Shown here in pieces: positions 1 through 61,002 of a stretch of 64,000 nucleotides of DNA. Position numbers and translations under genes: made by a program. The notes under the pieces are model-generated. The model ran no database searches. It worked only from the letters and a program-made list of their open reading frames with translations, and was not told the origin of the DNA. The DNA lies in assembly GCA_024641305.1 (NCBI GenBank), contig JAHEDI010000006.1, positions 24,149-88,148 on the forward strand. Direction: 5' to 3'. The stretch comes from a bacterium. GTDB lineage: Bacteria; Actinomycetota; Acidimicrobiia; Spongiisociales; JAENVV01. The number at the start of each line of letters is the position of its first letter. The first letter of the stretch is position 1.

Positions 1-1210
1 GGTTCAACATCGGCGCCAACCGGCCATATCCACCGGGTTTGAGAAGGTCGGAACAGACTGTCGCCGGACGCACCCCCATGCCAATCGCCTGGGAAAGGTT
101 CTCTTTGTTGATTCCCGCTGAAAAGCTCACCTGGACGTCTCCTCGGTGACCTTCGACCATGAATGTATCGGGGAGCGCCGAGATAAGTTCGTCGAGAAGT
201 GCCGTGGCCAGAACATGCAACGGTGGACCGGACAAATACATGGGATCATCGGGAAGGAAGTCCTTGTGATTCTCCACGACCAGGGTATTCGTCAGTTTGA
301 TGCCGAACTTGCGTCCCCGTTCTGCGGCATACGACCGCAACTCCTCGATGAGAGTCACCGCACGATCGAATTGCAGGTCATCGGTGAAAGACTGGCGGTT
401 GAGCCGGATATGTTCGTAGCCAAGCTGCTGTTGAACGATCTCACAAACCCGCCCGAAGCCAAGCAACGTCGGGTTGAGCTTCACGATGACATCGAGACCG
501 TGATGATCCATCAGATATTTGGTAATCGACTCGATCTCATTGGGAGGACACCCATGGAAAGTCGACAACGTCACCGTGTCGGCAATACGGGTGGGAAAAG
601 CGATATCCCGTAGGTCATCGAACGACTCGGGAATCAGCGGCCGAAGCCGCTCGATCTCGACGGAGGCGTCCATCATGGACGTGATGAACGCTTCAACCTT
701 CGGACTTGAGATCCCGGCCAGGTCGTAACCAACCGACATGTCGAAGACCAGAGGTCCGGGGTCACGCCCCACATGGGGACGGAGCGGGTCCCACTCTTTG
801 AGGATATGGATCATCATCCACGCCTTGACATATTCTTCGAGCGACTCGTGGACCTGTAATTCCTGGCTCCACTCGATGTTGAAGCCAATCGTCTCCATAT
901 CGATGCACGGTCGGGCGATGTCCAGGTCGTCCATGACCTGGATCGTCTTGAGCTCGAAAAGGCGGGCACCGCCCAACCACGACAAGACAATGTTCTGGGC
1001 TAACTGGCTGTGCGGGCCGGCGGCCGGGCCGATCGGGGTGGCAGCCGGCCTGCCAAGGAACTCGAACGTGAGATCGACATCCGGGTCAGGTTTCCAGTAG
1101 CGAGCCGTCGGCAAATCAAAAATCCGGTTCCGGCTGGCAAATTCATGAGCGACCCGGCGCAACAGCACATCCAGCGGGAATGGGGTAAGCGGTGGAACCT
1201 TGGGGGCCAT
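1..1210 (-). CDS. ygfK: YgfK-like oxidoreductase subunit of a selenium-dependent molybdenum hydroxylase system; N-terminal part only, gene runs off the window start
   Basis: Hand translation of the minus strand from ATG at 1210..1208 (RBS AGGAGAGG 5 nt upstream) stays open to position 1. It is absent from the ORF track because no stop falls in the window. Product matches the E. coli YgfK N-terminal DHOD/DHPD-like region (ATPIGPAAGPHSQLAQNIV, LFELKTIQV, TLSTFHGCPPNEIE, VKLNPTLLGF, DLLKPGGYGRL). Confidence 0.75.
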   Translation of the reverse strand, partial: MAPKVPPLTPFPLDVLLRRVAHEFASRNRIFDLPTARYWKPDPDVDLTFEFLGRPAATPIGPAAGPHSQLAQNIVLSWLGGARLFELKTIQVMDDLDIARPCIDMETIGFNIEWSQELQVHESLEEYVKAWMMIHILKEWDPLRPHVGRDPGPLVFDMSVGYDLAGISSPKVEAFITSMMDASVEIERLRPLIPESFDDLRDIAFPTRIADTVTLSTFHGCPPNEIESITKYLMDHHGLDVIVKLNPTLLGFGRVCEIVQQQLGYEHIRLNRQSFTDDLQFDRAVTLIEELRSYAAERGRKFGIKLTNTLVVENHKDFLPDDPMYLSGPPLHVLATALLDELISALPDTFMVEGHRGDVQVSFSAGINKENLSQAIGMGVRPATVCSDLLKPGGYGRLAPMLN

Positions 1211-1221
1211 GATTTCCTCTC

Positions 1222-2241
1222 CTAAAGCCGGGCGTGGAGGCGGGCAGCCTGTTCGGATGCTTTGGCGCGAATCTCGACGGGATCGACCATGGTTGGAACC
1301 CCATCTTCGAGGACCACCTGGCCGTCGACTTCGACCCGGATGGGTCTGACCCCCGATGTAAACGCCAGATGCCAGGGATCCATCGGCTGATAAGACCAGG
1401 TAACCAAATCCTCTTTGGCTTCTGGCATGAGGTCCCAGCCGGTCTCAAGCCACGACCAGGCCGAGTCTGGAGAAGCGGTAACGTCGACCGACCGCTGCAT
1501 GACGTAGGCAAGCCGGAACGATTCAATGACGTTGCCCCCGATCCCATCGGTCCCGAGAGCGACCGGGTTGCCAAACCGAGCGGGGTTGGCATACCCAACC
1601 GCGTTGTTCAGATTCGACATGGGATTGTGCAGGATCGTGCCGTTCAATTCATGGTCGGTGGGTAGGTGCACACAATGCGCCAGCAGCCACTTGTCATTCG
1701 TGAGACCTTCGAGCTTGGCGGGGGCATCACGATCTTCGGGCCCCTCACAGACATGTATATGGACGCCCACCCCCAACTCGTCGGCCAGGTCGGCAGCCGC
1801 GGTCAAGGTCTCCTGAGAACACGTGAACGAGGCGTGAATCCCGACCAGCCCGTTGCCGCCCTCGGAAATGAAGCGACGATTCTCTTCGATCCCCCGCCGC
1901 GCCCCATCGGGTCCGTGACGATCCGTCACACCATAGGCAGTAAGGGCCCGGACTCCCACCTCGGCGCAGGCCTTGGCAACCACCGACAAGCTACCTTCGA
2001 TGGCGTTGGGAGATTCATGATGATCGATGATGCCGGTGGTTCCGGCTTCAAGGGCCTCGAGGGCGGCCAACTTGGCAGACCACTCGATCATGTCAAGATC
2101 CAGGGCGGTGTCGAGACGCCACCAGATCTGCTCCAGAATTCCCTGAAAGGTCGTGGCTGTCTTGGGAGGAGCAGGCATCCCGCGCGCCAGCGCCGAGTAC
2201 AAGTGGTGATGGGCGCAGACGAGACCGGGTGTCGTATCCAC
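1222..2241 (-). CDS. ssnA: SsnA-like amidohydrolase (chlorohydrolase/aminohydrolase superfamily), N-terminally short
   Basis: 339 aa ORF. Aligns well with E. coli SsnA from about residue 57 (GLVCAHHHLYSALARGM, IWWRLDTALD, IIDHHESP, ALGTDGIG). GTG start with an in-frame TAA directly upstream. Confidence 0.8.
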   Translation of the reverse strand: MDTTPGLVCAHHHLYSALARGMPAPPKTATTFQGILEQIWWRLDTALDLDMIEWSAKLAALEALEAGTTGIIDHHESPNAIEGSLSVVAKACAEVGVRALTAYGVTDRHGPDGARRGIEENRRFISEGGNGLVGIHASFTCSQETLTAAADLADELGVGVHIHVCEGPEDRDAPAKLEGLTNDKWLLAHCVHLPTDHELNGTILHNPMSNLNNAVGYANPARFGNPVALGTDGIGGNVIESFRLAYVMQRSVDVTASPDSAWSWLETGWDLMPEAKEDLVTWSYQPMDPWHLAFTSGVRPIRVEVDGQVVLEDGVPTMVDPVEIRAKASEQAARLHARL

Positions 2242-2276
2242 TTAGCCGGCTTTCAGGCCAGTGATCGCCTGCTCGG

Positions 2277-4874
2277 TCATGACAAATCGACCGGTGAGTG
2301 CGTATTGATCGGAAGCCGGCTCCGGCGGATCCCGTCGACTTCGTAGAGGGCCTGGGAGACCGCGCCGGCGGTCGGTACGAGTCCGATTTCTCCGACCCCT
2401 TTGATCCCGAATGGTGCTCTGGGCTGAGGTGCCTCCACGAGAATGACTTCGATTTCGGGAACGTCCTTGGGACGAAGGATCCCGAGGCTGCGCAACGTCA
2501 TGTTGGTCGGTCGACCGTCGGCGTCGGTTGGGAAATCTTCGGTGAGGGCATACCCGAGGCCCATATGAACCGCGCCTTCCACTTGCCCTTTACACAGCAG
2601 CGGGTTAACAGCCCGGCCGACATCGTGGGCGGCCACCACCTTCTCGATGTTTCCTGTTGACTTATCGGCGATCACGATTTGGGCCGCGTAGCCAAAAGCT
2701 GAGTGAAGTATCGGATTCTCGAGTCCATCGGAAAGCTTGTTCGTCCAATCGACCCGGTACTCGCCCTCGTAATCGATGCCGACCTGGCAGCCATCGGCTA
2801 GCGCCGCCTGGCAGGCAGCTTGCACCGACCCGGCCCCCATGAGCGTGCCCCGTGAGCCGGTCGTCTGACCTGCCCCGAGTTCCCGGGTGGTGTCGACCAC
2901 CACCCTGATGCGGTTGGCTTCGATTCCGAGCTCCTCGGCGGCGACCTGCATGGCGACGGTGTGTACCCCCTGGCCCATTTCAGTCCAGCAATGCCGCACT
3001 TCGACGATGCCGTCTTCTTCGAAGCGGACGACCGCCCGAGCCACCTCGAGGAAGCCGTTGCCGAGTCCGGAGTTCTTGAGCGCCAATCCAAGCCCGACCG
3101 CTTTGCCGGCCGCCCTGGCTTCGTCATAGGGACCCTTGATCGCTTCCAAACAGAGTCGGACCCCGGTCGAACCATCATCCATGATCTGGCCGGGCCCCCA
3201 CACCACTCCGGGTTCGATGGCATTGCGGCTCCGAATTTCCCAGCCGCTGATGCCGACCTGCTCGGCCAGCCGATCCATAACCCCTTCCATGGCGAATTGC
3301 GCCTGGTTGGCTCCGAACCCGCGGAATGCCCCGCACACCGAGTTGTTGGTCCGAACCGCGGTTGCTTTTACGTCGATGTTTGGCACAACGTATGGTCCGC
3401 TGGCGTGACCGGCCGCCCGTTCAAGAACCTTCATGCCGACCGAGGCGTATGGCCCAGAATCGCCGATCATGCGGACCTTGAGTCCGACCAGTTTGCCGTT
3501 CTCGTCGCATCCCGCCCGGGTCTCGATCCGAATCGGATGCCGCTTGGCATGCATGAAAAAACTCTGTTCGCGCGTGAGGGTGCACTTGACCGGCCGACCA
3601 GACAAGTAGGCGGCCAGGGCCGTCTGGGCCTGATTCGACATGTCTTCTTTGCCACCGAACGCTCCCCCATTCGACACCAATTCGACGGTGATCGATTCCC
3701 GGTCAACCCCGAGGACGGCGGCGATCTGGTCGCGGTCGTCCCAGACTCCCTGTCCACCGGAATACACGTGGAGTCCGGACCCGGCCGGCACTGCCAGGGT
3801 CGACTCTGGTTCCAGAAACGCCTGCTCTACACGCTGGGTCACAAAGAGTTCGTCGACAGTGAATGCTGCCCCGGCGAGGGCCTGATCCACGTCGCCCCGG
3901 ACATACTCCGAGACCGAAAGCTGGTTTCCGTCCAAGCCCCACACGGCATCTTCGTCGTTGAGCGCCGTCATCGGATCGGTGATCGGTGTAAGCACGGTAT
4001 AGGACACATCGATAAGGTCGGCAGCCTGGCGGGCGGTCTGCTGGTCCTCAGCGACGACAATCGCCAGGACATCCCCGAGATAGGAGGTTCGACCTCCCAC
4101 CGGGATGAACACCGGCCAATCCTTATGGATGATTCCCACTCGCAGGTCACCAGGGACATCTGCCCCGGTGTAAATGGCGATCACGCCAGGCAACGCGTGA
4201 GCGGCTTGGGTGTCGATCGACAAGACATCGGCGCGGGCGTGGTCGGCTAGCCGGAGGGCCCCGTGCGCCATTGCGGGCACCCGCAAATCATCGACGTAAC
4301 CACGATCGCCGAGGGCCAACGCTTCCGACTCATATTTGACACTTGAGACGCCGATGCCACCCTCGACGGCGACCGCCGGAATATCTACCCCAGATGCCAA
4401 CAGTTCGATCGCCTCGACGATCCCGACATACCCGGTGCAGCGACACAGATGGGCGCCCAACCGTCCCTCGATGGTGGCGCGATCAAGATCCGGGCCCTTT
4501 TGATCGATGAGGGCTTTGGCGCGAACCAAAATGCCGGGAGTACAAAACCCGCATTGAAGAGCACCCTTGGCGGCAAACCCGCGCGCCAGGCGGTCACGTT
4601 CGTCCTCGTCGAATCCTTCGAGCGTGAGCACTTCTTTTCCGGCAGCCTTCTCCATCGAAACAAGACACGCCTGAATCGCCTTACCGTCGAGGAGAATCGT
4701 GCAGCAGCCACACTGGCCTTGTGGCGCACATCCGTCCTTGGCCGAGGTGATACCGACCTCTTCTCGGAGGGCGGCGAGAAGGTGGGGATGATGCATGCCG
4801 ACCTCGATCGGCCGGCCATTCACGATCAGGCTGGCCTTTTCGGTGGTACGAACATAAACCGGGGTGGCGGTCAT
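2277..4874 (-). CDS. Xanthine dehydrogenase-family molybdenum hydroxylase with a fused N-terminal 2Fe-2S ferredoxin domain (XdhD-like)
   Basis: 865 aa ORF. N-terminus carries plant-type and second 2Fe-2S cysteine motifs (GCCTILLDGKAIQAC, QCGFCTPG), followed by a large aldehyde oxidase/xanthine dehydrogenase MoCo-binding region. Sits next to ssnA and ygfK as in E. coli. Confidence 0.85.
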   Translation of the reverse strand: MTATPVYVRTTEKASLIVNGRPIEVGMHHPHLLAALREEVGITSAKDGCAPQGQCGCCTILLDGKAIQACLVSMEKAAGKEVLTLEGFDEDERDRLARGFAAKGALQCGFCTPGILVRAKALIDQKGPDLDRATIEGRLGAHLCRCTGYVGIVEAIELLASGVDIPAVAVEGGIGVSSVKYESEALALGDRGYVDDLRVPAMAHGALRLADHARADVLSIDTQAAHALPGVIAIYTGADVPGDLRVGIIHKDWPVFIPVGGRTSYLGDVLAIVVAEDQQTARQAADLIDVSYTVLTPITDPMTALNDEDAVWGLDGNQLSVSEYVRGDVDQALAGAAFTVDELFVTQRVEQAFLEPESTLAVPAGSGLHVYSGGQGVWDDRDQIAAVLGVDRESITVELVSNGGAFGGKEDMSNQAQTALAAYLSGRPVKCTLTREQSFFMHAKRHPIRIETRAGCDENGKLVGLKVRMIGDSGPYASVGMKVLERAAGHASGPYVVPNIDVKATAVRTNNSVCGAFRGFGANQAQFAMEGVMDRLAEQVGISGWEIRSRNAIEPGVVWGPGQIMDDGSTGVRLCLEAIKGPYDEARAAGKAVGLGLALKNSGLGNGFLEVARAVVRFEEDGIVEVRHCWTEMGQGVHTVAMQVAAEELGIEANRIRVVVDTTRELGAGQTTGSRGTLMGAGSVQAACQAALADGCQVGIDYEGEYRVDWTNKLSDGLENPILHSAFGYAAQIVIADKSTGNIEKVVAAHDVGRAVNPLLCKGQVEGAVHMGLGYALTEDFPTDADGRPTNMTLRSLGILRPKDVPEIEVILVEAPQPRAPFGIKGVGEIGLVPTAGAVSQALYEVDGIRRSRLPINTHSPVDLS

Positions 4875-5827
4875 ACCCCATCTCCGCTCCGGGCCACGCC
4901 GCGTTGTTCGGTGATCCGTCTGTAGGCGGCCGGTACCCGGTAGCGCTCGAAATCGAACAAGGTGGTCTTGTAAAATCGGGTGTGGTCAAGGTCAATTCTG
5001 GCGACGATCACTTCGTCGCCGGTGGTGATCGCCTGAGCGATGATTTGTCCCGATGGGGCAATGATGACCGACTGGGCGAGAGATTCGACCCCTTCTTCAA
5101 ATCCACCTTTGGCAACTCCGACGACGTACGTCCCGTTCTGATAGGCACCGGCTTGCATGACGAGATGATTATGGAATGCCTGGAGCGGGTTCTGAGTGGG
5201 ATCCGGGGCATACGCCAGGGGGGTGTTGTACCCGATGAGAATGAGTTCGACTCCTTGCAGGCCCATCACCCGATAGGTTTCCGACCAGCGCCGATCGTTG
5301 CAGAGCGCCATACCAACGATCCCACCGAAGGCCTCCGAAACGGGAAAGTCGTCGCCCGGAGTGAAGTAATGGCGCTCCGCATGCTGAAACTGGCGCCACG
5401 GTTCATGCTCGGCATGCCCGGGAATGTGCACTTTTTCGAACACGTTGACCGTTTCCCCATGCGGGTCGACCAGGTGATACACGTTGTGTCTCTGGCCATT
5501 TTCACCGAGCCGCGCATAGCCAAGCGCAAACCCGATCCCGAGCCGCCGAGCCTCATCCCACAAAGGCTTGGTGTAACGATTGGGCATCTCGCGCTCGTAG
5601 AAGTGGTCGGCCTCCTCAAGGGGCATGTGCCACCGCGGAAAGAACGTGGTCAAGGCCAGCTCGGGAAAGGCCACCAGCTCAGCCCCGAGCTCTGACGCAT
5701 CCTGAAGCATCACAATCAAGCGATCAACCACCTCATCGCGAGAGGTGTCACGCTGAACCGGTCCCATCTGGGCTGCGGCGAGGGTCAGTGAACGGGACAT
5801 GCCTGGACTATACCGGACCGGCCACAC
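4871..5827 (-). CDS. Carbon-nitrogen hydrolase, N-carbamoyl-D-amino-acid hydrolase (D-carbamoylase)-like
   Basis: 318 aa. FPELALTTFFPRWH, CNDRRWSE and GYNTP motifs match D-carbamoylases. Overlaps the XDH start by 4 nt. Confidence 0.8.
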   Translation of the reverse strand: MWPVRYSPGMSRSLTLAAAQMGPVQRDTSRDEVVDRLIVMLQDASELGAELVAFPELALTTFFPRWHMPLEEADHFYEREMPNRYTKPLWDEARRLGIGFALGYARLGENGQRHNVYHLVDPHGETVNVFEKVHIPGHAEHEPWRQFQHAERHYFTPGDDFPVSEAFGGIVGMALCNDRRWSETYRVMGLQGVELILIGYNTPLAYAPDPTQNPLQAFHNHLVMQAGAYQNGTYVVGVAKGGFEEGVESLAQSVIIAPSGQIIAQAITTGDEVIVARIDLDHTRFYKTTLFDFERYRVPAAYRRITEQRGVARSGDGV

Positions 5828-5866
5828 CAGCCTTATACAAAAGGTAAAGGTTTGGTGGACCCATGA

Positions 5867-6820
5867 TCAAGTTTCCGTCAACGACGTAAAACGGGTGCCC
5901 GCCTCTCCTGCCATGGCAGCTTCAATGCGCGACGGCGACGTGACGATGGCCTCCGCACCGCCCGCGTCGAGAAAAGCCAGGATCGCACGGATCTTCGGCT
6001 CCATACTCCCCGCTCGAAAATGAATGCCTTCGCCGAGATAGCGACGGGCATCCTCCCGCGTGAGATGATCAACCCATCGCTGATCGGGTTGGCCGAAGTT
6101 CAGGGCTACCTGTTCGACCGAAGTCGATATGAGAAGGAGATCGGCCCCGAGCTCACTGGCGAGCAGCGCCGAGGCGTGATCTTTGTCAATCACCGCCGGC
6201 ACCCCGACCAACGTCCCATCGGGGCCCGCTACTACCGGGATACCCCCACCGCCGGCGGCGATCACGACGTACCCCGCCTCAACCAGCCGAGCTACCGCGT
6301 CCAACTCCACGATTCGAAGCGGATGAGGCGATGCGACCACTCGGCGCCAGCCCCGACCGGCGTCCTCCATCACGTCCCATCCGTCAACGCGATGCCGCTC
6401 ACCGGCCTCAGTCTCTGTCATGAACGCTCCGATTGGTTTGGCCGGATGTTCAAACGCAGGGTCGTCGGCATTGACTTCCACCTGCGTCACAATCGTGACG
6501 ACCCGCTCAGGTAGACCCATCCGTTTGAAGTCGTTCAGAAGATTTTGCTGAAGCAGATACCCGATCGCCCCCTGAGTGTCCGCTCCGCACACCTCAAGCG
6601 GAACCTCGTGCAGTTCGCCGCGCGCCAATTCAGAACGCCGCAGGATGAAGCCGATCTGGGGACCATTGCCGTGGGTCACGACGACATTCCAGCCAGATGC
6701 CACCATGATGGCGATGTGATGATCGGTCTCGGCCGCAGCCAAGTATTGATCCTCCACCGACTGGTGAGCGGGGTCTGTGATGAGACTATTGCCTCCGATT
6801 GCCACTACGGCGATAGGCAT
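5867..6820 (-). CDS. arcC: Carbamate kinase
   Basis: 317 aa. AVVAIGGNSL and THGNGPQIG carbamate-kinase motifs. Counterpart of yqeA in the E. coli ygeW-xdhD region. Confidence 0.9.
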   Translation of the reverse strand: MPIAVVAIGGNSLITDPAHQSVEDQYLAAAETDHHIAIMVASGWNVVVTHGNGPQIGFILRRSELARGELHEVPLEVCGADTQGAIGYLLQQNLLNDFKRMGLPERVVTIVTQVEVNADDPAFEHPAKPIGAFMTETEAGERHRVDGWDVMEDAGRGWRRVVASPHPLRIVELDAVARLVEAGYVVIAAGGGGIPVVAGPDGTLVGVPAVIDKDHASALLASELGADLLLISTSVEQVALNFGQPDQRWVDHLTREDARRYLGEGIHFRAGSMEPKIRAILAFLDAGGAEAIVTSPSRIEAAMAGEAGTRFTSLTET

Positions 6821-6827
6821 GGTCCGC

Positions 6828-7799
6828 TCACATCGTCAAGGCCATGGCGGCCTTCTGGACATGGAGACGATTCTCGGCCTGGTCGTATACGACGCTGTGC
6901 GACCCATCAATGACCTCATCGGACACCTCCAGGTTCCTGTCGGCCGGGAGCGGATGCATGTAGATGGCCTTCGGATCGGCCATGGCGAGCCGTTCGGCAT
7001 CAACCATCCAGTTCGTATACCGGCCGCTGATGTCGGCGGATTCCTCTTCGCTGACGGTGGTCAAAGCTCCCCAAGACTTGGCATATACGACGTCTGCTCC
7101 CCCGAGACCATCCTCGAATGACTCGACCACATCGAGGGTGCCTCCCGAGGCCCGGGCGTTGGCCGCAGCCTGGGCCATGATGTCTTCTTCGAGTGCGAAC
7201 TCGGGTGGGCGGGCGAGTCGGACCTTCATTCCGAATCGCGTGGCCAAAAGCACAAGGCTCTGCGCAACGGAAATCGGCTTCTGATAGCTCGCCGCGTGGG
7301 CATAACTCACGTCGAGTGTCAGGTGTCGGGGATCTCCCTTCTTCTCCATGATCGTCATCACGTCGGCCAGTGCCTGGAACGGGTGGTAGCGGTCACACTG
7401 CATGTTGAGCACTGGCACCCGCGAGGCCTTCGCTACTTCGCGTATGTAGTTGTTGCCCACCCCCCAATCGACGTTGCGAATCGCCAGCCCGGAGGTGTAT
7501 CGCCCCAGAATGTCTCCGATTTCCTTGGCAGTATCACCATGGGAGATCTGGGTGGATTTGGCCTCCATGAACATGGCGTGGCCACCCAATTGGGCCATGC
7601 CCGCTTCGAAACTCGCCCTAGTCCTGGTCGACGAGAAGAAGAACAGCATCGTCAGGACTTTGTCCCGCAACAACGGGTGCGGCTCACCCATCGCCTGCTG
7701 GAGCTTCAGATGTTTGGCGGCCGCGAACAACGTTTCGAGCTCTTCGACCGACCAGTCCTGGGTGGTAATCAAGTCACGGCCACGGACATCGGTGATCAT
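6828..7799 (-). CDS. ygeW: YgeW-like carbamoyltransferase (aspartate/ornithine carbamoyltransferase superfamily)
   Basis: STRTR motif present. Start moved to the internal ATG at 7799, which overlaps the stop of the upstream carbamoyltransferase as ATGA; this avoids the 73-nt overlap implied by the ORF track. Confidence 0.7.
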   Translation of the reverse strand: MITDVRGRDLITTQDWSVEELETLFAAAKHLKLQQAMGEPHPLLRDKVLTMLFFFSSTRTRASFEAGMAQLGGHAMFMEAKSTQISHGDTAKEIGDILGRYTSGLAIRNVDWGVGNNYIREVAKASRVPVLNMQCDRYHPFQALADVMTIMEKKGDPRHLTLDVSYAHAASYQKPISVAQSLVLLATRFGMKVRLARPPEFALEEDIMAQAAANARASGGTLDVVESFEDGLGGADVVYAKSWGALTTVSEEESADISGRYTNWMVDAERLAMADPKAIYMHPLPADRNLEVSDEVIDGSHSVVYDQAENRLHVQKAAMALTM

Positions 7800-8749
7800 G
7801 GCGTCGCTCCCAACACCAGCGCCAGCAGCGCCATACGGATCACCAGTCCGTTGTAGGCCTCTTGCCAATACCGGGCATGATGCGTGTCATCCACGTCGGT
7901 CGACAACTCGTCCATCCTTGGCAAGGAATGCAGGACGATCGACGATCGTTTCGCTTTGGTGGCCAGCAATTCGGCGGTGACCTGATATCGAGAATCTGTC
8001 GTACCCAACGAGTCACCACGCTCGTCCCGACTCTTGCCATAGTCGGCCTGGACAACCGGTTCGATGAAGATCACGTCAGCCTCGTTGACAACCTCCCCGA
8101 CGTGCTCGGCTCTACGGAAGCTCAGGCCACGGTCTCTAACCGTCTTGAGCAGCACCTCATCGGGTTCCTCATCGTCCGGGCAAACGTAGATGAGCTCTGC
8201 GTCAAACTGGGTTAGCGCATAGGCGAGAGAGTGCATCGTGCGCATCCGCCAATCTCCGACCGCCACAAACGTCAGGCCATCGACCCGCCCCAGCTCGTTA
8301 CGCACGGTGAAGAGATCGGTCAGGACCTGAGTGGGATGCTCCCCCCAGCCGTCACCACCGTTGATAACCGGAATCGAAGCCCAGCGAGCCATCTCGTGCG
8401 GTGCCCCGATCTGAGGGTGCCTCATGACGATAACGTCACCGTAATACTCCAACATGTGAGCGGTGTCCTTGATCGACTCTTGGTAGAAGTCCCCCGCTCG
8501 AGTCATCTTCGCGTCGGCGAATCCGGTCACCTGGCCTCCCAACCGCAACATCGCTGACTCATGGGCCAGGCGGGTTCTGGTCGAGGCCTGAAAGAACGCG
8601 CTGACGAGAATCTTGCCTGCGAGAAGATCAATAGTTCGTCGGCTTTTGGCGACCGGGTCGAATCGGTCGCCGGCTTCAAACACGGATTCAAAATCTGCCC
8701 GGCTGAAGTCGTCCAGTGACAAAATGTCACGTCCTGCAAATTCGCGCAT
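7796..8749 (-). CDS. Aspartate carbamoyltransferase-family protein (PyrB-like)
   Basis: 317 aa. STRTR, HPTQ and HSLPR motifs. First gene of the long minus-strand operon. Confidence 0.75.
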   Translation of the reverse strand: MREFAGRDILSLDDFSRADFESVFEAGDRFDPVAKSRRTIDLLAGKILVSAFFQASTRTRLAHESAMLRLGGQVTGFADAKMTRAGDFYQESIKDTAHMLEYYGDVIVMRHPQIGAPHEMARWASIPVINGGDGWGEHPTQVLTDLFTVRNELGRVDGLTFVAVGDWRMRTMHSLAYALTQFDAELIYVCPDDEEPDEVLLKTVRDRGLSFRRAEHVGEVVNEADVIFIEPVVQADYGKSRDERGDSLGTTDSRYQVTAELLATKAKRSSIVLHSLPRMDELSTDVDDTHHARYWQEAYNGLVIRMALLALVLGATP

Positions 8750-8852
8750 GACTAACTCCTGGTCGTAGTCGCCCTACTGTGCAACCGTTGACCGAACGGC
8801 GCTAGTGGCATTTGTCATAATCGGCCGGAGGCCTCTCACGGGGGTACAATGC

Positions 8853-8868
8853 CTCCTTGATCAAGGAG
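8853..8868. promoter_or_regulatory. Perfect 16-bp palindrome CTCCTTGATCAAGGAG overlapping the Shine-Dalgarno of the beta-ureidopropionase-like gene
   Basis: Read directly from the sequence. Its reverse complement is identical, and AAGGAG sits 5 nt before ATG 8874. Confidence 0.5.
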
Positions 8869-8873
8869 CAACT

Positions 8874-9713
8874 ATGTCGATGAACGTGAGGGCCGCCCTC
8901 GTCCAGTCCGAATGGACCGGTGACACGGATTCGATGATCGAAAAGAACATCGGGTACGCCCGGGATGCCGCCAACGATGGCGCTCAAGTTCTCTGTTTCC
9001 AGGAGATCTTCTCGGCCCCCTACTTCTGCACGGTGCAAGATCGCAGCTTCTTCTCCTACGCCGAGGAGATGCCGGGACCCACCACCGACCGCATGGTGGA
9101 TCTCGCCAAAGAAACCGGAATGGTGCTTGTCGTCCCGATGTTCGAGAAGGTCGACGACGGGACCTACTACAACACCGCGGCCGTCATCGACGCCGACGGC
9201 AGCTTCCTTGGCAAATATCGTAAGAACCACATCCCCCAGGTGCAGGGGTTCTGGGAGAAGTTCTACTTCCGGCCAGGCAACCTCGGCTATCCGGTTTTCG
9301 ACACTGCCGTAGGAAAGGTAGGCGTCTATATCTGTTACGACCGGCACTTCCCGGAGGGTTGGCGGGAGCTTGGTCTCAACGGGGCCAAGATCGTGTTCAA
9401 CCCATCGGCTACCACCCGTGGCCATTCCAAATATCTCTGGCAGCTCGAACAGCCGGCCGCCGCCGTCGCCAACGAGTACTTCGTCGGGGCCATCAATCGG
9501 GTAGGCCCCGAGCCTGCCGAAGACACCGACTACTACGGCTCGTCATACTTCGTGGACCCTCGCGCCCGGCTCGTCGGAGAAGTGGCATCTGACCAAAAGG
9601 ACGAAGTCATCGTCCGCGATCTCGATATATCGATGATCGAAGAAACTCGCAACTACTGGCAGTTCTTTCGCGATCGCCGACCCGACACCTACACCCAGAC
9701 CGGGGCGATCTGA
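8874..9713 (+). CDS. Carbon-nitrogen hydrolase, beta-ureidopropionase/N-carbamoylputrescine amidase-like
   Basis: ORF 8805..9713 trimmed to ATG 8874, which follows the AAGGAG SD. Nitrilase-superfamily motifs (CFQEIF, YRKNHIP, ICYDRHFPE). Confidence 0.8.
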   Translation: MSMNVRAALVQSEWTGDTDSMIEKNIGYARDAANDGAQVLCFQEIFSAPYFCTVQDRSFFSYAEEMPGPTTDRMVDLAKETGMVLVVPMFEKVDDGTYYNTAAVIDADGSFLGKYRKNHIPQVQGFWEKFYFRPGNLGYPVFDTAVGKVGVYICYDRHFPEGWRELGLNGAKIVFNPSATTRGHSKYLWQLEQPAAAVANEYFVGAINRVGPEPAEDTDYYGSSYFVDPRARLVGEVASDQKDEVIVRDLDISMIEETRNYWQFFRDRRPDTYTQTGAI

Positions 9714-9743
9714 ACCCGATCGACCGCCGATGGGCTCCTGGCA

Positions 9744-10562
9744 CTATGGCGCGGCCGCCGCCAGCCCGGCCGTCAGCACGACAAAAAGGCCGAGCACCAC
9801 TTGCTGGGCACCGACGATGGCAATCGCCGGCGGAGGTCGACGAACCAGCCACAGGTGAACGACGGCCAGGACCACAATCGCCGACCATCCGACCCACGGG
9901 ACAAACCCGGCAACGGCACCCAAAACGACGACCAGCACGGCCAGAACCTGCCCGAGGTCGCTGACAGTCCGCTTATGAGGCTGTTGCTTGGCCCTGAGCA
10001 ATTGAACCCGCACGAAGATCACGGCCGCCATCGATCTCGCCGCGATCACCAACCACAAACCGCCTGCCACCGACGGCGAAGCGCCGCCGACCAGACCAAC
10101 GGCCGCCGCCACCGATCCAATCCCGATGGTCCCGGCCAACTCGGGTACGAGCCTACGACTGCGAGACCGGATGTCGTACCACCATTCAACGGCCACCAGC
10201 GGAGCAGCCACTGCGAGCGGAGCCAGAAATCGCAGACTTCGGCCCAGGGTAAGTCCAACCAATAAAACCGTCAGGAGGCCCGCTTCTGCAGCTGCCACCT
10301 TCCGGGCCAGAACAGTCCGGGGAAGTTCTCGCCGCCGCCGGTGGTCCACCATGACCATCTTCAACGGAGTTCGCAGCAAGAACCCGACCAGGGTGACGAA
10401 CCCGAGCACAACGCCGGACCATGAGAACGCCACCAGAAGACCGAGCAGAACCGGTTCGATCGCAAAGGCCCAACCACCGTGCTCAGCGGGGATGGCAACC
10501 ATCGCCAGCGTTGGCCGCGCGACTGCGGACATCTCGGGGCCAGGGACAGGGTCAGGAGTCAC
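9744..10562 (-). CDS. Polytopic integral membrane protein of unknown function
   Basis: 272 aa, very hydrophobic, 7-8 predicted TM segments. GTG start. Confidence 0.5.
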   Translation of the reverse strand: MTPDPVPGPEMSAVARPTLAMVAIPAEHGGWAFAIEPVLLGLLVAFSWSGVVLGFVTLVGFLLRTPLKMVMVDHRRRRELPRTVLARKVAAAEAGLLTVLLVGLTLGRSLRFLAPLAVAAPLVAVEWWYDIRSRSRRLVPELAGTIGIGSVAAAVGLVGGASPSVAGGLWLVIAARSMAAVIFVRVQLLRAKQQPHKRTVSDLGQVLAVLVVVLGAVAGFVPWVGWSAIVVLAVVHLWLVRRPPPAIAIVGAQQVVLGLFVVLTAGLAAAAP

Positions 10563-10618
10563 CCGGCAAGTCTACAAATACAATAGGATGTGGAACCTGG
10601 ACCGCCAGGAGGTGAATC

Positions 10619-11626
10619 ATCAACGCCGCTCTGAGAGGCCTTCCCAAGGCCGAGCTTCACTGTCATATTGAAGGAACCCTTGAACCCGAAATGCAGTTCG
10701 CTCTGGCGAGCCGCAACGGCCAAATCGGTCGCTATTCATCCGTCGAAGAACTCAGAGCCGCATACGATTTCACCGACCTCCAGTCCTTCCTCGATATCTA
10801 CTACGAAGGGGCGGCGGCCTTAAGGACGGAGGAAGACTTTTTCGACCTCACCTGGGCGTACCTGGAACGTGCCGCTGCCGACGGCGTGCGCAGGGCGGAG
10901 ATTTTCTTTGATCCCCAAACCCATACCGAACGGGGCATCAGCCTGGAGACGGTAATGAACGGGATCGGGGCGGCCCTTGATCGCAGCACCGAGTTGGGGA
11001 TCTCGACCGGACTGATTCTGTGCTTTCTACGTCATCTGGGCGCTATCGAAGCCCTCGCTACCCTCGAACAAGCCCTTCCCTATCGCAAACGGCTCCTCGG
11101 AGTGGGCCTCGATTCATCCGAGAGGGGTCTTCCGCCCGAGCTATTCGAGGCGACGTACGACCTGGCCAGACAGGAGGGCCTTCGACTAGTTGCCCACGCT
11201 GGCGAAGAAGGACCACCTGCGTACATCTGGCAGGCACTGGACGTGTTGGGCGTCGAACGTATCGACCACGGTGTGAGCGCAATCGAAGACCCGGCCCTCG
11301 TCGATCGACTGGCTGCCGATCAAATTGCCTTGACGATGTGTCCCTTATCGAATCTGAAACTCCACGTGGTGAGTGATCTCGCCGATCATCCGCTCGGTCG
11401 ATTACTCGACGCAGGCGTACGGGTGACCGTCAATTCCGACGACCCTGCCTATTTCGGTGGATACCTCGGCGCCAATTACGACGCCGTCGGTCGGGCGCTT
11501 GGCCTTGCGCCATCCGCACTGATTCAGCTGGCTCGTAACAGCCTTCAGGCGTCATTCCTACCCGAAGCAGACCCGATTTTTGCAGAGTTCGAGCAGGGCG
11601 TCGCAGCCTTGGAGTTGGTCGAATAA
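10619..11626 (+). CDS. add: Adenosine deaminase
   Basis: The ORF-track ATG at 10691 lies downstream of the conserved N-terminal metal-binding motif LPKAELHCHIEGTL, which is encoded in frame at 10640..10681. In-frame TGA at 10613..10615. Real start is probably a non-ATG codon (ATC 10616 or 10619, or CTG 10631) preceded by AGGAGG at 10607..10612. The remainder is a typical adenosine deaminase (HAGE, SDDP motifs). Confidence 0.8.
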   Translation: MNAALRGLPKAELHCHIEGTLEPEMQFALASRNGQIGRYSSVEELRAAYDFTDLQSFLDIYYEGAAALRTEEDFFDLTWAYLERAAADGVRRAEIFFDPQTHTERGISLETVMNGIGAALDRSTELGISTGLILCFLRHLGAIEALATLEQALPYRKRLLGVGLDSSERGLPPELFEATYDLARQEGLRLVAHAGEEGPPAYIWQALDVLGVERIDHGVSAIEDPALVDRLAADQIALTMCPLSNLKLHVVSDLADHPLGRLLDAGVRVTVNSDDPAYFGGYLGANYDAVGRALGLAPSALIQLARNSLQASFLPEADPIFAEFEQGVAALELVE

Positions 11627-11767
11627 CCAGGCGACCCGACCGACAATGCCGTGTTCGTTGACCCAAACGACCGACGCCACTCCACTCATCGGGTGGTGGG
11701 CGTACCGAACAGACTGATCTAGCCATTCGCGGGGATAGTCTGAAGTTCCCCTATCGTGGGTACACCT

Positions 11768-12061
11768 ATGCAGCTTGACATCACTCCCGAAGCCATAGCC
11801 CTGGTCCGCCGGAAGGGCGGGGTCATGGCCATCGACTTCATCCCCCCGATCAGTTGAGGCGGAAAGCTTGAGGTGTCGGTCGACACCTACCTCAAAGGCA
11901 AGGATCTGGCCCCCTATCAACGGGTGGAGGTCGACGATGTCCAACTGCATGTGTCGCCGGCACTGTCGACGTGGGCAGATCGAGCCACGGTGACCGTCAG
12001 GTCAGGAGCGCTTGGTAAGAGGTTTGAGATTCTCGCCGACCATAAACACCAACCAACGTGA
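11768..12061 (+). CDS. Candidate selenoprotein, HesB/IscA-like small protein with in-frame TGA at 11855..11857 (predicted Sec)
   Basis: ATG 11768 to TGA 11855 encodes MQLDITPEAIALVRRKGGVMAIDFIPPIS. The same frame continues through the track ORF 11873..12061. The joined 97-aa product resembles IscA/HesB (ITxxA..., KG...I.F....[C/U]GG), with the TGA at the position of the conserved Cys. A SECIS-like hairpin follows. Confidence 0.55.
11871..11888 (+). promoter_or_regulatory. SECIS-like hairpin (7-bp stem AGGTGTC/GACACCT, GGUC tetraloop) 16 nt after the in-frame TGA
   Basis: Read from the sequence. Loop GGUC at 11878..11881 lies 24-27 nt from the U of UGA. The E. coli fdhF SECIS has an identical GGUC apical loop at 22-25. 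Confidence 0.45.
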
Positions 12062-12835: not shown

Positions 12836-14323
12836 GTGACAACTTCCATCATGGGTCTCTTCGACACCATCGTCGACGAGCAGGCCCTGACCAACACCAT
12901 CGAGCGTTTTCGGGAGCGTGATATTGCACTTCCGACGTTCGCCCAACTCGCCGATCCGTCGACGATGCCAGATGGCGTGAGAGACGCTCTTGCGAATGTG
13001 GGCCCGGACGATCCAGACCCTCGCAATCTGTGGCGGGTCAACTGGTACAACGATGAGCACCGGACCGGCCGAACGGATGTCCCGCTGTACGTCGAGATTC
13101 CCAGCGAATTAAGTGGCGTCGATGTCCGGATCCTCATGGCACTTGGGGACAAGTTCCCGATGATTCGCGCCCACAAAGTATTGGCAGCGTACGCCTGCCT
13201 GGCCCCCCGCATCGTCACCGGAGCGTTTGATCCGACTTTTCACCGGGCCATTTGGCCGTCGACCGGCAATTATGCCAGGGGCGGCGTCGCGATCAGCCGG
13301 ATCATGGGCTGCCGGGGGATGGCCGTTTTGCCCGAAGGCATGAGCCAGGAACGGTTCGACTGGCTCAACGAATGGACGGCGGGTCCTGAGGACATCCTGC
13401 GGACGACCGGGACCGAATCCAACGTCAAAGAGATCTATGACGCCTGTAACGAACTGGCCAAAGACCCGACCAATGTGGTCTTGAACCAGTTCTCGGAGTT
13501 CGCCAACCACCTTGGGCACTACTACGTCACCGGGCGGGCCCTCGAACACATCTACGAAGCGGCCGGCGGAGGAAACCTCGTAGCCTTTGTCTCGGCTTCC
13601 GGATCGGGGGGAACGATCGCGGCTGGCGACTACCTCAAAGAACGCCATGGATCCCGGATTGTGGCAGTCGAGGCCCTGGAGTGTCCCACGATGCTCTACA
13701 ACGGGTACGGTGAGCACAACATTCAAGGCATCGGCGACAAACACATTCCACTCATCCAGAATGTCATGAACACGGACGATGTGGCGGCCATCACCGACCA
13801 GGCTACCGACACGTTATTGCTGCTATTCAACACCCCGGCCGGAAAAGAATATCTCGTCAGTCAGGGACTCGACCCGGCGCTGGTCGATCAGCTCCAACAT
13901 CTCGGGTTCTCGTCAATCGCCAACCTGCTGGCGGCTATCAAAGTCGCCAAATTGCATGGCTTTGGAGCTGGCGACGTCATCGTCACCGTGGCGACCGACG
14001 GGTTCGAACTGTACAAGTCGGAAGTGGATAAGATCATCTCCCGGGACCATCCAGGCGGCTTCGGCGAAACGGCTGCCGCGGCAGCCCATGCCCGGTTCCT
14101 CACAGGTATCGATACCGATCACACGGTAGACATCGGGGCGATCGGGAGAAAACGGATATTCAATCTCGGCTACTACACGTGGGTCGAGCAGCAGGGCGTC
14201 GATTTCGAGTCGTTCGAAGCCAGACGATCCCAGAAGTTCTGGAAGGAACTCCATGGACACGTCGAACGTTGGGACGCCGCGATCAACGAATTCAACGCCC
14301 GGACCGGAGTGACGGTTGCCTGA
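12836..14323 (+). CDS. PLP-dependent enzyme, tryptophan-synthase-beta (fold type II) superfamily, cysteine-synthase-like with N-terminal extension
   Basis: 495 aa. Candidate PLP lysine in MIRAHKVLAAYA, plus STGNYARG and a glycine-rich GSGGT loop. GTG start 5 nt after GAAGGAG. Confidence 0.65.
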   Translation: MTTSIMGLFDTIVDEQALTNTIERFRERDIALPTFAQLADPSTMPDGVRDALANVGPDDPDPRNLWRVNWYNDEHRTGRTDVPLYVEIPSELSGVDVRILMALGDKFPMIRAHKVLAAYACLAPRIVTGAFDPTFHRAIWPSTGNYARGGVAISRIMGCRGMAVLPEGMSQERFDWLNEWTAGPEDILRTTGTESNVKEIYDACNELAKDPTNVVLNQFSEFANHLGHYYVTGRALEHIYEAAGGGNLVAFVSASGSGGTIAAGDYLKERHGSRIVAVEALECPTMLYNGYGEHNIQGIGDKHIPLIQNVMNTDDVAAITDQATDTLLLLFNTPAGKEYLVSQGLDPALVDQLQHLGFSSIANLLAAIKVAKLHGFGAGDVIVTVATDGFELYKSEVDKIISRDHPGGFGETAAAAAHARFLTGIDTDHTVDIGAIGRKRIFNLGYYTWVEQQGVDFESFEARRSQKFWKELHGHVERWDAAINEFNARTGVTVA

Positions 14324-15437
14324 CAATCCGTTCCTCCGGTACCGCCAACGCCTCGATTCATACCGACGCGCCATCGAAAACGGCTGGAGCGACCAGCGCT
14401 TCACCGAGCTTGTGAACCAAATCGATGAGGCGATCGCCTCGGTTGACGGCCATGGTTTCGAGACGACCCCGCTCACGGCGTACGGTCAGCTCCACCCGAG
14501 CGGCGACGAGGTCTGGGTGAAAGACGACACAAACAACGTCGGAGGATCCCACAAGGCCCGCCATCTCTTTGGAGTCGCGCTTGCTGAGGCCATCGATGGG
14601 GCGGAGTCTGGAGAACTGGCGATCGCGTCGTGTGGGAACGCCGCCATCGCAGCGTCTGTCATCGCCAGGGCCATAAGCCGGCCCCTACGCGTCTTTATCC
14701 CGACCTGGGCAGACCAGGCGATCGTCGATATTCTCCAAACCAACCAGGCGCAGATTGAGATCTGTCGGCGCCATCCGGACGAAACGGGTGATCCGACCTA
14801 CCTGCGATTCATGGAGGCGGTCGCCACGGGATCAACGCCTTTCTCAGTACAGAGCACGGCTACGCCATCGACGCTCGACGGTGGACGGACGATCGGATGG
14901 GAACTCGCCGACCAGCTCATCGAGGTGGGCGTCACGGGTGACCTGGGTCTCTTCATCCAGGTGGGCGGTGGGGCACTCGCCGCGGCCACCTGGCAAGGGA
15001 TTATGGAAGGTCTCGGCCAACAGTCAGCCATCAAACCGGTGCTGTTTGCCGTCCAAACCCAAGCCTGCGCTCCCCTGGCGCGAGCATGGGATCAACTGAT
15101 CGACGAAGTCGGCGCTGACCCGGCCACCCGTCTGGCCGTCGCTTCTGCCGATCCAGACAGGTTCATGAGGCCCTGGGAGCCGATTGGACAATCTGAGGCG
15201 ACCGGCATCCTCGACGATGTGACCTATGATTGGCTTCCGATCGTGGCCGGCATGCTCGCATCGGGCGGAGAGCCGATTGTTGTTGACGAAACGACGGTCG
15301 TCGCCGCCCACCAGCGGGGCCGAGCGATCACTCACATTGATGTAGAACCAACCGGCACTGCCGGCTATGCCGGGTTATTGGCCACCCGCCGCCCCGGCCA
15401 GGCAGTCGTGCTTTTCACCGGCGTCACCCGCTTCTGA
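14316..15437 (+). CDS. PLP-dependent enzyme, fold type II (threonine synthase/dehydratase-like)
   Basis: 373 aa. VWVKDDTNNVGGSHKAR lysine motif. Overlaps the upstream gene by 8 nt. Confidence 0.65.
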   Translation: MPDNPFLRYRQRLDSYRRAIENGWSDQRFTELVNQIDEAIASVDGHGFETTPLTAYGQLHPSGDEVWVKDDTNNVGGSHKARHLFGVALAEAIDGAESGELAIASCGNAAIAASVIARAISRPLRVFIPTWADQAIVDILQTNQAQIEICRRHPDETGDPTYLRFMEAVATGSTPFSVQSTATPSTLDGGRTIGWELADQLIEVGVTGDLGLFIQVGGGALAAATWQGIMEGLGQQSAIKPVLFAVQTQACAPLARAWDQLIDEVGADPATRLAVASADPDRFMRPWEPIGQSEATGILDDVTYDWLPIVAGMLASGGEPIVVDETTVVAAHQRGRAITHIDVEPTGTAGYAGLLATRRPGQAVVLFTGVTRF

Positions 15438-23654: not shown

Positions 23655-23681
23655 AAGAACCTCGAACTTGCCAATCTGTTT

Positions 23682-23707
23682 TAGTGTTGTAGCATGTTAC
23701 AACACTA
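23682..23707. promoter_or_regulatory. AT-rich inverted repeat TAGTGTTGTA-N6-TACAACACTA in the hisA / yerC-hisG divergent intergenic region (operator candidate)
   Basis: 10-bp perfect arms with a 6-nt spacer, read from the sequence. Stands out as AT-rich in a GC-rich genome. Lies between the divergent starts at 23654 and 23733. Confidence 0.45.
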
Positions 23708-23732
23708 AGCCGATAAAGAAACCACACTTATT

Positions 23733-24886: not shown

Positions 24887-24899
24887 GGAACCAAGAATC

Positions 24900-48705: not shown

Positions 48706-48711
48706 ACAAGT

Positions 48712-49102: not shown

Positions 49103-49307
49103 GGTAAACGATACCCCGCTTTGACCACCAATGAGGTCGGTCTGACTTTGATAGGAAGACCACGAGAACCAGAACGTGTCAAGGTGAGGCACGACCGTCA
49201 GTAGGATACCCTCCAGTTCCCCCGACACGGCCGTCCGGTGATTGACCAGACCGATCCCGTTTCTTGGTCTTCAAACTGCCACATTGGCCGGAGGCATCGG
49301 CTAGACG

Positions 49308-60922: not shown

Positions 60923-61002
60923 GGTGCACCTTATCCTGTCGCCGGACCCTACGGCACGGCGTTTCGAGTTTTGATGTCCGGTGTCCCGACTACTGTGTTT
61001 TC

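Follow-up and report, generated by a model that had tools for sequence, protein, structure and literature searches.

The first 9.7 kb of a 64,000-nucleotide (nt) stretch of an uncultured Acidimicrobiia metagenome-assembled genome (MAG; GenBank assembly GCA_024641305.1, contig JAHEDI010000006.1, positions 24,149 to 88,148; the whole stretch is hereafter called the window) carry genes for a molybdenum (Mo) enzyme of the xanthine dehydrogenase (XDH) family, an SsnA-like amidohydrolase and a YgfK-like protein, together with two carbamoyltransferases, a carbamate kinase and two CN-hydrolases. Seven of these open reading frames (ORFs) are close-packed on the minus strand (positions 2-8749), and one lies divergently on the plus strand. 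Family assignments were based on hidden Markov model (HMM) scans against Pfam and NCBIfam models, with bit scores set against the curated cut-offs. The following genes were distinguished:

2..1210, minus strand: N-terminal 403 codons of YgfK, short form (putative 2,8-dioxopurine reductase); TIGR03315, 388 bits; the frame runs off the window edge
1222..2241, minus strand: short SsnA-like amidohydrolase, 339 amino acids (aa), putative ring-opening hydrolase; NF005540, 257 bits; TIGR03314, 240 bits
2277..4874, minus strand: 865-aa 2x[2Fe-2S] and molybdopterin enzyme of the XdhAC/DOPDH type (putative conversion of urate to 2,8-dioxopurine); TIGR03311, 825.0 bits
4871..5827, minus strand: N-carbamoyl-D-amino-acid hydrolase (D-carbamoylase)-like CN-hydrolase, likely start ATG 5800; 372 bits to 6lei, 300 bits to 1fo6
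5867..6820, minus strand: carbamate kinase; NF009007, 381.4 bits (cut-off 266)
6828..7868, minus strand: OTC/AOTC-like carbamoyltransferase, distinct subfamily; OTC 261 bits (below 306), AOTC 237 bits (below 288)
7796..8749, minus strand: ATCase-like carbamoyltransferase, distinct subfamily; TIGR00670, 242.8 bits (cut-off 236.95)
8805..9713, plus strand: divergent beta-ureidopropionase/N-carbamoylputrescine amidase-like CN-hydrolase; 190 bits to 2vhh, 180 bits to 5h8i

On the minus strand the order runs from the ATCase-like and OTC/AOTC-like carbamoyltransferases through carbamate kinase, the D-carbamoylase-like protein and the Fe-S/Mo enzyme to SsnA and YgfK, with spacing (neighbouring genes overlap by 4 nt at the closest and lie 39 nt apart at the widest) that fits the expectation for an operon. 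An earlier note, made from the sequence alone, had listed these genes in this order, as a minus-strand operon with a divergent beta-ureidopropionase-like gene, and had seen in them an actinobacterial equivalent of the ygfK-ssnA-xdhD/ygeW/yqeA region in E. coli; the HMM scans recovered all of these elements, and the source of the DNA, a member of Acidimicrobiia, agrees with the actinobacterial attribution. The adenosine deaminase that it placed alongside is also present, although outside positions 1-9713, at about 10616-11626.

For the comparative analysis, 185,579 species genomes were scanned with the YgfK fragment, which yielded 69 loci (given below by L numbers), nearly all from Acidimicrobiia MAGs. 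Some of these records carry sponge-symbiont family names (Candidatus Poriferisodalaceae, Spongiisociaceae) and, judged by record titles, several of the MAGs may be sponge-associated. The components of the operon were distributed as follows:

short YgfK (at least 50% identity): 63 of 69 loci
Fe-S/Mo enzyme, SsnA and YgfK genes adjacent: 36 of 69 loci
D-carbamoylase-like gene directly upstream of the Mo enzyme gene: 27 of 69 loci
ATCase-like and OTC-like carbamoyltransferases plus carbamate kinase: 9 of 69 loci
hyuA: 1 of 69 loci (L056)
E. coli-like ygeX: 2 of 69 loci

In L004 and L005, the gene set and order are identical to those of the window (84-95% amino-acid identity). This synteny, and the recurrence of the three-gene core in more than half of the loci, show that the arrangement is not a product of chance, and the minus-strand run is a real operon of this uncultured organism. 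Downstream of ygfK, in the region corresponding to that beyond window position 1, L003-L005 encode an ABC transporter of the PnrA/Bmp type, a deaminase with the CDA fold and a conventional XDH made up of two subunits, one of 466 aa (FAD and 2Fe-2S) and one of 758 aa (Mo, pucD-like); the operon therefore sits in a purine-catabolic island.

The functions of XdhD/XdhAC, YgfK, SsnA, YgeW and YqeA of E. coli, Clostridium sporogenes and C. difficile were established biochemically in two 2025 preprints (Li et al. 2025, bioRxiv 10.1101/2025.05.19.654654; Liu et al. 2025, bioRxiv 10.1101/2025.04.24.650524). According to these studies, urate is reduced to 2,8-dioxopurine by XdhD-YgfM (E. coli) or by the FAD-less XdhAC (C. 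sporogenes), YgfK reduces the ring, and SsnA opens it, giving ureidomethyl-hydantoin as the main product, with 5-ureido-dihydrouracil as a minor one. HyuA then opens the second ring, one ureido group is removed by YgeW with the carbamate kinase YqeA, or by UacY, and the other by YgeY, while YgeX converts 2,3-diaminopropionate to pyruvate and ammonia. SsnA was used as the marker of the pathway and Actinomycetota were counted among the carrier phyla, although no actinobacterial cluster was described (Li et al. 2025), and our full-text literature searches found no paper on Acidimicrobiia versions of this pathway.

Architecture of the YgfK, SsnA and Mo enzyme core

The profile scans assigned the three core proteins to the YgfK, SsnA and "selenium-dependent xanthine dehydrogenase" models and not to dihydropyrimidine dehydrogenase (DPD), guanine deaminase or CO dehydrogenase, the outcome that the earlier note had anticipated. 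TIGR03315 was the sole HMM match of the ORF at 2-1210, covering profile positions 5-388, and the fragment shares 40% identity with E. coli YgfK over about 400 aa (residues 5-405; 41% for the L004 orthologue). The same note had taken this ORF for the N-terminus only of a YgfK whose remainder would lie past position 1. The gene is indeed cut by the window, at residue 403, but in near-identical relatives the complete gene is short: it stops after 589-590 codons in L002 (98% identity) and L003-L005 (86-87%), and what follows the cut is not E. coli-like. In the L004 orthologue, a second block aligns with residues 898-978 of E. coli YgfK (40% identity), whereas E. coli residues ~410-895, which form the GltD-like FAD/NAD(P)H module, have no counterpart in the full-length orthologues from L002, L004 and L005 or in the homologues P0001-P0120. 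A C-terminal 2x[4Fe-4S] ferredoxin domain (Pfam Fer4 families) was seen in the orthologues only, at residues 467-530 of the L004 protein. The complete 590-aa orthologue scores 437 bits, below the TIGR03315 cut-off of 835.3.

The top 120 homologues in a collection of 5.8 billion proteins are 576-638 aa long, except for three shorter ones (454, 460 and 466 aa), one of which is labelled partial. P0001 (591 aa) is 96% identical to the window fragment, and its AlphaFold model (pLDDT 84, pTM 0.88) matches the FMN barrels of DHODH and DPD (Foldseek E ~2e-9, probability 1.0). The position of the gene end in relatives, the lengths of the homologues and this model together indicate that the short YgfK is genuine and not just a result of the window boundary, i.e., a form of about 590 aa predicted to combine an FMN barrel with 2x[4Fe-4S] and to lack the FAD/NAD(P)H module. 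PreA has the same domain pair. One MAG contig, L067, encodes both forms in tandem (7810-12031): a long, E. coli-like YgfK (with matches to residues 1-417 and 435-1003) followed directly by a short one.

Two labels are in use for the homologues in public records, "4Fe-4S dicluster domain-containing protein" and "putative selenate reductase". The latter label, which is echoed by the name of the TIGR03315 model, would make YgfK a selenate reductase subunit and the locus one of selenium metabolism; since the E. coli and C. sporogenes YgfK proteins were shown to reduce 2,8-dioxopurine and nothing at the locus relates to selenate, we give this old database reading practically no credence.

The SsnA-like protein is also trimmed. 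Its scores (NF005540 257 bits, TIGR03314 240 bits) lie under the curated cut-offs (444 and 455.5, respectively) and far above the next-best family (82 bits), and it shares 34% identity with E. coli SsnA. The match begins at profile position 58, so about 55 N-terminal residues are absent, and the metal-binding HxH motif (HHH) is found at residues 11-13, the start being about ten residues ahead of the motif. An in-frame stop directly precedes the GTG start codon in both the window and L004, which excludes a longer N-terminus. In the window 11 nt separate ssnA from ygfK; the two genes are adjacent in 49 of the 69 loci, and in all 49 the short SsnA is kept.

The third core protein is a single chain with Fer2_2, Ald_Xan_dh_C, MoCoBD_1 and MoCoBD_2 domains and no FAD domain. 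Its TIGR03311 score falls just below the cut-off of 830.45, while the XdhD model TIGR03313 gives 202.5 bits against a cut-off of 1101.9 and the identity to E. coli XdhD is 24%. The earlier assignment to the XdhD family thus has to be replaced: as judged from these comparisons, the enzyme is of the TIGR03311/XdhAC type. Nor is the fusion of Fe-S and Mo-cofactor parts a difference from E. coli, as had been claimed, because XdhD is the same fusion and aligns collinearly with the window enzyme. The D. gigas aldehyde oxidoreductase has the same architecture (292 bits). The motifs FGGKE, KRHP and GVGE, presumably equivalent to the XDH-type active-site motifs, are present. At the position aligned to XdhD E606, the proposed urate-orienting glutamate, D or E is found in Acidimicrobiia and K in L063 and L066, but the alignment is unreliable there. 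No FAD partner subunit (YgfM) is encoded in the operon, nor was a ygfM match found in the 64 kb.

The proteobacterial and myxococcal MAGs L063 and L066 contain the same type of Mo enzyme (48% identity) together with bona fide YgeW (44-45% identity to the E. coli protein) and YgeY, which supports a role of this enzyme type in the same pathway. A second Acidimicrobiia arrangement was found in L006, L008, L011, L015, L017 and L064 (at about 12-20 kb within each locus), where short YgfK is accompanied by a Bmp ABC transporter, an XdhD-type enzyme (37-38% identity to E. coli XdhD), YqeB and YqeC. YgfM is encoded as well in the loci that extend far enough (L008, L011, L015, L017), and no SsnA was found within 10 kb in any of the six.

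These observations bear on the use of SsnA and YgfK as markers of a labile selenium cofactor, as the earlier note had treated them. The 2025 studies identified the two proteins as ring-opening amidohydrolase and 2,8-dioxopurine reductase, respectively, and for the clostridial Mo enzymes selenium dependence was shown through SelD (Li et al. 2025; Liu et al. 2025); the markers of the selenium cofactor are YqeB, YqeC and SelD. In the 36 loci with the Mo enzyme type of the window, yqeB and yqeC never occur within 10 kb of ygfK, nor was selD found at that distance. The occurrence of yqeB and yqeC beside the XdhD-type enzymes of the second arrangement indicates that the class does possess the selenium-cofactor trait.

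Carbamoyltransferases, CN-hydrolases and flanking genes

Both carbamoyltransferases anticipated by the earlier note are present, but the label "YgeW-like" given to one of them does not hold. The YgeW models score 143 bits (TIGR03316, cut-off 500) and 151 bits (NF005538, cut-off 453) on 6828-7868, whose best matches are OTC and AOTC, and 34 and 38 bits on 7796-8749. The OTC models on 6828-7868 also remain under their cut-offs (TIGR00658, 249 bits vs. 280.85; NF001986, 261 vs. 306); the likely start of this gene is ATG 7799, which gives a 323-aa product matching the gene call on contig L001.

The closest solved relatives of the two proteins are a genuine ATCase and a genuine OTCase, and the ATCase-like protein just passes TIGR00670. 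It could therefore be argued that they are the aspartate and ornithine carbamoyltransferases of ordinary biosynthesis, placed side by side fortuitously and without a catabolic role. Against this, the motifs of the second substrate were found to be consistently replaced. In the ATCase-like protein, examined at the aspartate-binding residues (R167, R229, Q231 and HPLPR), STRTR, HPTQ and R167 are kept, while TRVQKER is changed to EPVVQADY(G/T)K.RDER (with an insertion) and HPLPR to HSLPR in all 10 orthologues. Similarly, the OTC-like protein keeps STRTR and HPFQ, and in all 11 orthologues its ornithine loop DxxxSMG is changed to KSWGA(M)LTT and GDARNN to AxSYQKPxSV. Hence, in both enzymes the predicted carbamoyl-phosphate motifs (STRTR, HPxQ) are retained and those for the second substrate altered. 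Furthermore, the two genes overlap by 4 nt (stop/start), are followed by the carbamate kinase gene (48% identity to E. coli YqeA) and share an operon with catabolic hydrolases. The three genes occur together next to, or a few kb from, short YgfK in nine related loci, being contiguous in seven of them; in L012 and L014 the OTC-like gene is on the opposite strand, 0.8-0.9 kb from the ATCase-like and kinase genes. The biosynthetic explanation is thus considered very improbable.

The divergent CN-hydrolase gene (174 bits to human beta-ureidopropionase) is present in nine loci. Beyond it, the following genes were annotated:

9744..10562, minus strand: YwiC-like membrane protein, conserved at this place in L004, L005 and L010; PF14256, 77 bits
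10616..11626, plus strand: adenosine/adenine deaminase; NF006850, 452 bits (cut-off 419)
11768..12061, plus strand: candidate selenoprotein, an ORF of 97 codons of which codon 30 is an in-frame TGA (IPPIS-U-GGKLE); conservation in L010; NF041239
12122..12421, plus strand: small Thiamine_BP (YkoF/MTH1187-like) protein; PF01910, 29.5 bits
12418..12780, plus strand: HTH_22 (YheO-type C-terminal helix-turn-helix) protein; PF13309, 68 bits
12836..14323, plus strand: 495-aa fold-type-II pyridoxal-phosphate (PLP) enzyme, distantly cysteine-synthase-like; PF00291; cysK 82 bits, far under cut-off
14316..15437, plus strand: 373-aa fold-type-II PLP enzyme, distantly threonine synthase/dehydratase-like; PF00291, 107 bits

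Translation of the deaminase from its first ATG (10691) would drop the HCH metal motif, which lies in frame upstream in the window as in L010, L051, L054 and L056; no ATG, GTG or TTG is available there in the window or in L010. Because the motif precedes the first ATG, the gene probably starts at a non-canonical ATC at 10616, downstream of AGGAGG. The HTH_22 protein is the likely regulator of the locus; tblastn matches to it were found beside the cluster in 29 of the 69 loci, and in 15 of them the match spans half or more of the protein with an identity of 40% or higher.

The 97-codon ORF begins with MQLD and is located within the purine locus, after the deaminase gene and ahead of that for the regulator. 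In L010, the same TGA is kept, with 78% amino-acid identity on both flanks, and the codon differences after the TGA comprise 30 synonymous and 13 non-synonymous ones, a ratio that indicates selection in frame downstream of the stop. The read-through product matches NF041239, the "CC/Se motif family (seleno)protein" model, across the TGA (29.4 bits, E 6e-7, cut-off 40), and its database homologues are 62-64-aa post-TGA fragments only. A GGUGUC/GACACC stem is present after the TGA, but this SECIS-like hairpin folds no better than shuffled sequences (z = 0.07) and was not used as evidence; the tRNA-Sec search found no tRNA of any kind within the window. Taken together, the conservation of this ORF suggests that the organism decodes selenocysteine. 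Selenocysteine decoding requires SelD, whose presence would thus be implied indirectly; on selenium in the Mo enzyme the ORF says nothing.

The genomic context of the two PLP enzymes is mixed. The 495-aa gene lies next to the cluster in 10 loci, one of them the proteobacterial L063 (57% identity). In L077 it has XDH-family genes as neighbours, but in L074-L076 it stands alone or with no more than a CN-hydrolase. The 373-aa gene follows it in L026, L037 and L063, while more distant versions lie inside the carbamoyltransferase operon in L040-L044 and L052, the latter being weakly matched by E. coli YgeX. The pair was therefore dropped as fixed pathway parts and kept as candidates, the 373-aa enzyme being a candidate replacement of the diaminopropionate ammonia-lyase YgeX. 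L076 (8815-12699) carries a CN-hydrolase, the same small Thiamine_BP gene and two PALP genes (494 and 405 aa) in this order, with no Mo enzyme, SsnA or YgfK nearby; this submodule may be an independent ureido- or amino-acid-processing unit.

A nitroreductase gene (15459-16049, plus strand) and an MR_MLE racemase-like gene (16062-17135, plus strand) follow the PLP genes; they have no counterpart in any related locus and were not counted as parts of the system. The product of the latter belongs to the enolase superfamily and resembles o-succinylbenzoate synthase and N-acylamino-acid racemase. Racemases of the N-acylamino-acid-racemase kind can act on N-carbamoyl amino acids.

Searches of the whole window by tblastn with E. 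coli proteins revealed no hyuA, ygeX, ygeY, yqeB, yqeC, mocA or ygfM (E 1e-5) and no selD (E 1e-3). In its 17-64 kb part, the Pfam/NCBIfam scan found housekeeping genes alone (his operon, cobalt transport, PFK, trpD, RNase P), with no hydantoinase and no selenium genes. Within this housekeeping context, a histidine biosynthesis block (22902-27434) comprises a hisA/F-type gene on the minus strand (22902-23654) and hisG, hisB, hisH, hisF and hisIE on the plus strand (23966 to 27434). A bacterial class A RNase P RNA (279 bits) was located at 48709-49101 on the minus strand, and the ORF overlapping it (48738-49124) is probably spurious. A luciferase-like (F420/FMN-dependent) oxidoreductase is encoded at 60898-61992 on the plus strand, ~50 kb off the locus; such an enzyme was proposed as the ring reductase in Chloroflexota (Li et al. 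2025), and nothing ties this copy to the pathway. The downstream flanks of L018 and L026 contained nothing pathway-related.

Comparison with known systems and pathway assignment

With the E. coli cluster (xdhD-ygfM, ygfK, ssnA, hyuA, ygeW, yqeA, ygeY, ygeX), the locus shares the adjacency of YgfK and SsnA, an Fe-S/Mo fusion of the XDH family and a YqeA-like kinase. It differs in the TIGR03311-type Mo enzyme without YgfM, in YgfK without residues ~410-895 and SsnA without its ~55 N-terminal residues, in two non-YgeW carbamoyltransferases and two CN-hydrolases, and in the absence of HyuA, YgeY, YgeX, YqeB, YqeC and MocA from the 64 kb. Of the differences from E. coli pointed out in the earlier note, the lack of YgfM, hydantoinase and M20 peptidase in the window was borne out. 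Liu et al. (2025) recognize a cluster by at least four of seven proteins above thresholds; judged by family only, three of this set are encoded here (XdhAC-type, YgfK and SsnA), and HyuA, YgeW, YgeY and YgeX are absent.

With the clostridial systems, the locus was compared by domain make-up and published descriptions. The C. sporogenes XdhAC (= DOPDH) likewise consists of Fe-S and Mo-cofactor parts only, has no FAD subunit and uses no NAD(P)H (Liu et al. 2025), and the C. difficile ring reductase is also devoid of an FAD/NAD(P)H domain and presumably relies on an external Fe-S donor (Li et al. 2025). Moreover, the hydrolytic removal of a ureido group by the C. difficile UacY is an accepted alternative, as we propose for the window. 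The differences lie in the trimmed YgfK, in contrast to the PydA-like UacX, and in the nitrilase-superfamily hydrolases found here instead of a D-aminoacylase or M20 peptidase.

A similar logic, with FMN/Fe-S reduction, opening by an amidohydrolase and decarbamoylation by a nitrilase-superfamily enzyme, underlies reductive pyrimidine degradation (PydA/DPD or PreT-PreA, PydB, PydC). However, YgfK shows no sequence-level match to DPD or PreA, SsnA does not belong to the dihydropyrimidinases, the reduction would here be preceded by a Mo hydroxylase step, and the loci contain no PreT-like partner. The carbamoyltransferase and kinase genes in turn resemble the arginine deiminase-type ATP harvest (catabolic OTC plus carbamate kinase) and the YgeW-YqeA pair in that a phosphorolytic carbamoyltransferase would feed carbamate kinase, yet here there are two carbamoyltransferases, neither of them YgeW or a canonical OTC or ATC.

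On this basis, we consider it likely that reductive urate (2,8-dioxopurine) degradation is encoded here by an Acidimicrobiia form of the known cluster. The data show family membership, domain architecture and domain loss, gene order and conservation. For the scheme outlined below, we infer the substrates, the direction of the Mo reaction, the electron donor, the ATP yield and what the carbamoyltransferases and PLP enzymes do.

Purines would be taken up and deaminated by the adenosine/adenine deaminase encoded here and, in close relatives, by the PnrA-type transporter and the CDA-fold deaminase; the neighbouring conventional XDH (FAD/Fe-S/Mo) of these relatives would oxidize them to urate. The FAD-less Fe-S/Mo enzyme (2277-4874) would then strip urate of its 6-oxo group, yielding 2,8-dioxopurine, and the short YgfK would reduce the pyrimidine ring. 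Since the latter has no FAD/NAD(P)H module, its electrons would have to be supplied by an external Fe-S partner, which has also been proposed for the ferredoxin-dependent enzymes of clostridia. After hydrolytic ring opening by the short SsnA, the ureido groups of a diureidopropionate-type product could be removed hydrolytically by the D-carbamoylase-like and beta-ureidopropionase-like CN-hydrolases, replacing YgeY/UacY, and/or by phosphorolysis through the two non-canonical carbamoyltransferases, whose carbamoyl phosphate carbamate kinase would use to make ATP. The two PLP enzymes (12.8-15.4 kb) are candidates for the conversion of the C3 remnant to pyruvate.

Several observations weigh against this assignment. 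The window contains no HyuA candidate for opening of the hydantoin/dihydropyrimidine ring, and no hydantoinase/dihydropyrimidinase, YgeY or clear YgeX was found in the window or in most related loci, so the locus by itself does not suffice to complete the known pathway. None of the three core proteins (SsnA, YgfK and the Mo enzyme) reaches its curated full-length cut-off, there is no evident electron-donor gene at the locus, and the protein functions in this clade are putative, resting on sequence comparison. Acidimicrobiia of this kind are mostly aerobic heterotrophs. The known pathway was characterized in anaerobes (Li et al. 2025; Liu et al. 2025).

Some of these points could be accommodated if the same families acted on an N-heterocycle other than urate, be it a different oxopurine, a compound resembling a pyrimidine or a hydantoin, with YgfK and SsnA working like PydA and PydB, the CN-hydrolases like PydC or D-carbamoylase, and the Mo enzyme (de)hydroxylating that substrate. 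The trimmed structures of YgfK and SsnA, the low scores of all three core proteins and the absence of HyuA, YgeY and YgeX from the window would fit, and a D-carbamoylase together with a beta-ureidopropionase-like enzyme is the classical toolkit of hydantoin and pyrimidine breakdown. Nevertheless, YgfK, SsnA and TIGR03311 are the best and near-exclusive family matches, the locus is embedded among genes of purine uptake, deamination and XDH, and the same Mo enzyme type co-occurs with true YgeW and YgeY in L063 and L066. A substrate other than urate is therefore regarded as rather unlikely.

Within the urate assignment, one elaboration may be formulated, which we hold to be distinctly unlikely as a whole. 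The Mo dehydroxylase and the trimmed YgfK, both of which would have lost their NAD(P)H/FAD modules, might be wired through Fe-S clusters or a ferredoxin to the co-encoded XDH, in which case the four electrons released from hypoxanthine to urate would pay for the four-electron reduction of urate, in a redox-balanced process independent of pyridine nucleotides; each carbamoyltransferase would cleave one ureido group phosphorolytically, which would raise the yield per purine from one ATP to two. If true, marine and sponge-associated actinobacteria, living outside the gut and probably aerobic, would break down purines with an internal redox balance.

While the reductive urate pathway itself was already known, its probable Acidimicrobiia version, distinct and streamlined, is new. 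The pathway was not worked out until 2025 and has been regarded as typical of anaerobes of the gut; the locus and the 60-odd related genomes widen its likely distribution to uncultured marine-type Acidimicrobiia, a large group in which this version is widespread. YgfK without the NAD(P)H module and SsnA without the N-terminal segment are natural deletion variants that help to define the catalytic cores of these enzymes. The locus also brings to light two uncharacterized carbamoyltransferase subfamilies tied to carbamate kinase, and putative nitrilase-type decarbamoylases in place of YgeY/UacY. Behind labels such as "4Fe-4S dicluster domain-containing protein", "putative selenate reductase" and "cysteine synthase" there is thus probably hidden a route of purine-nitrogen recycling in marine actinobacteria.

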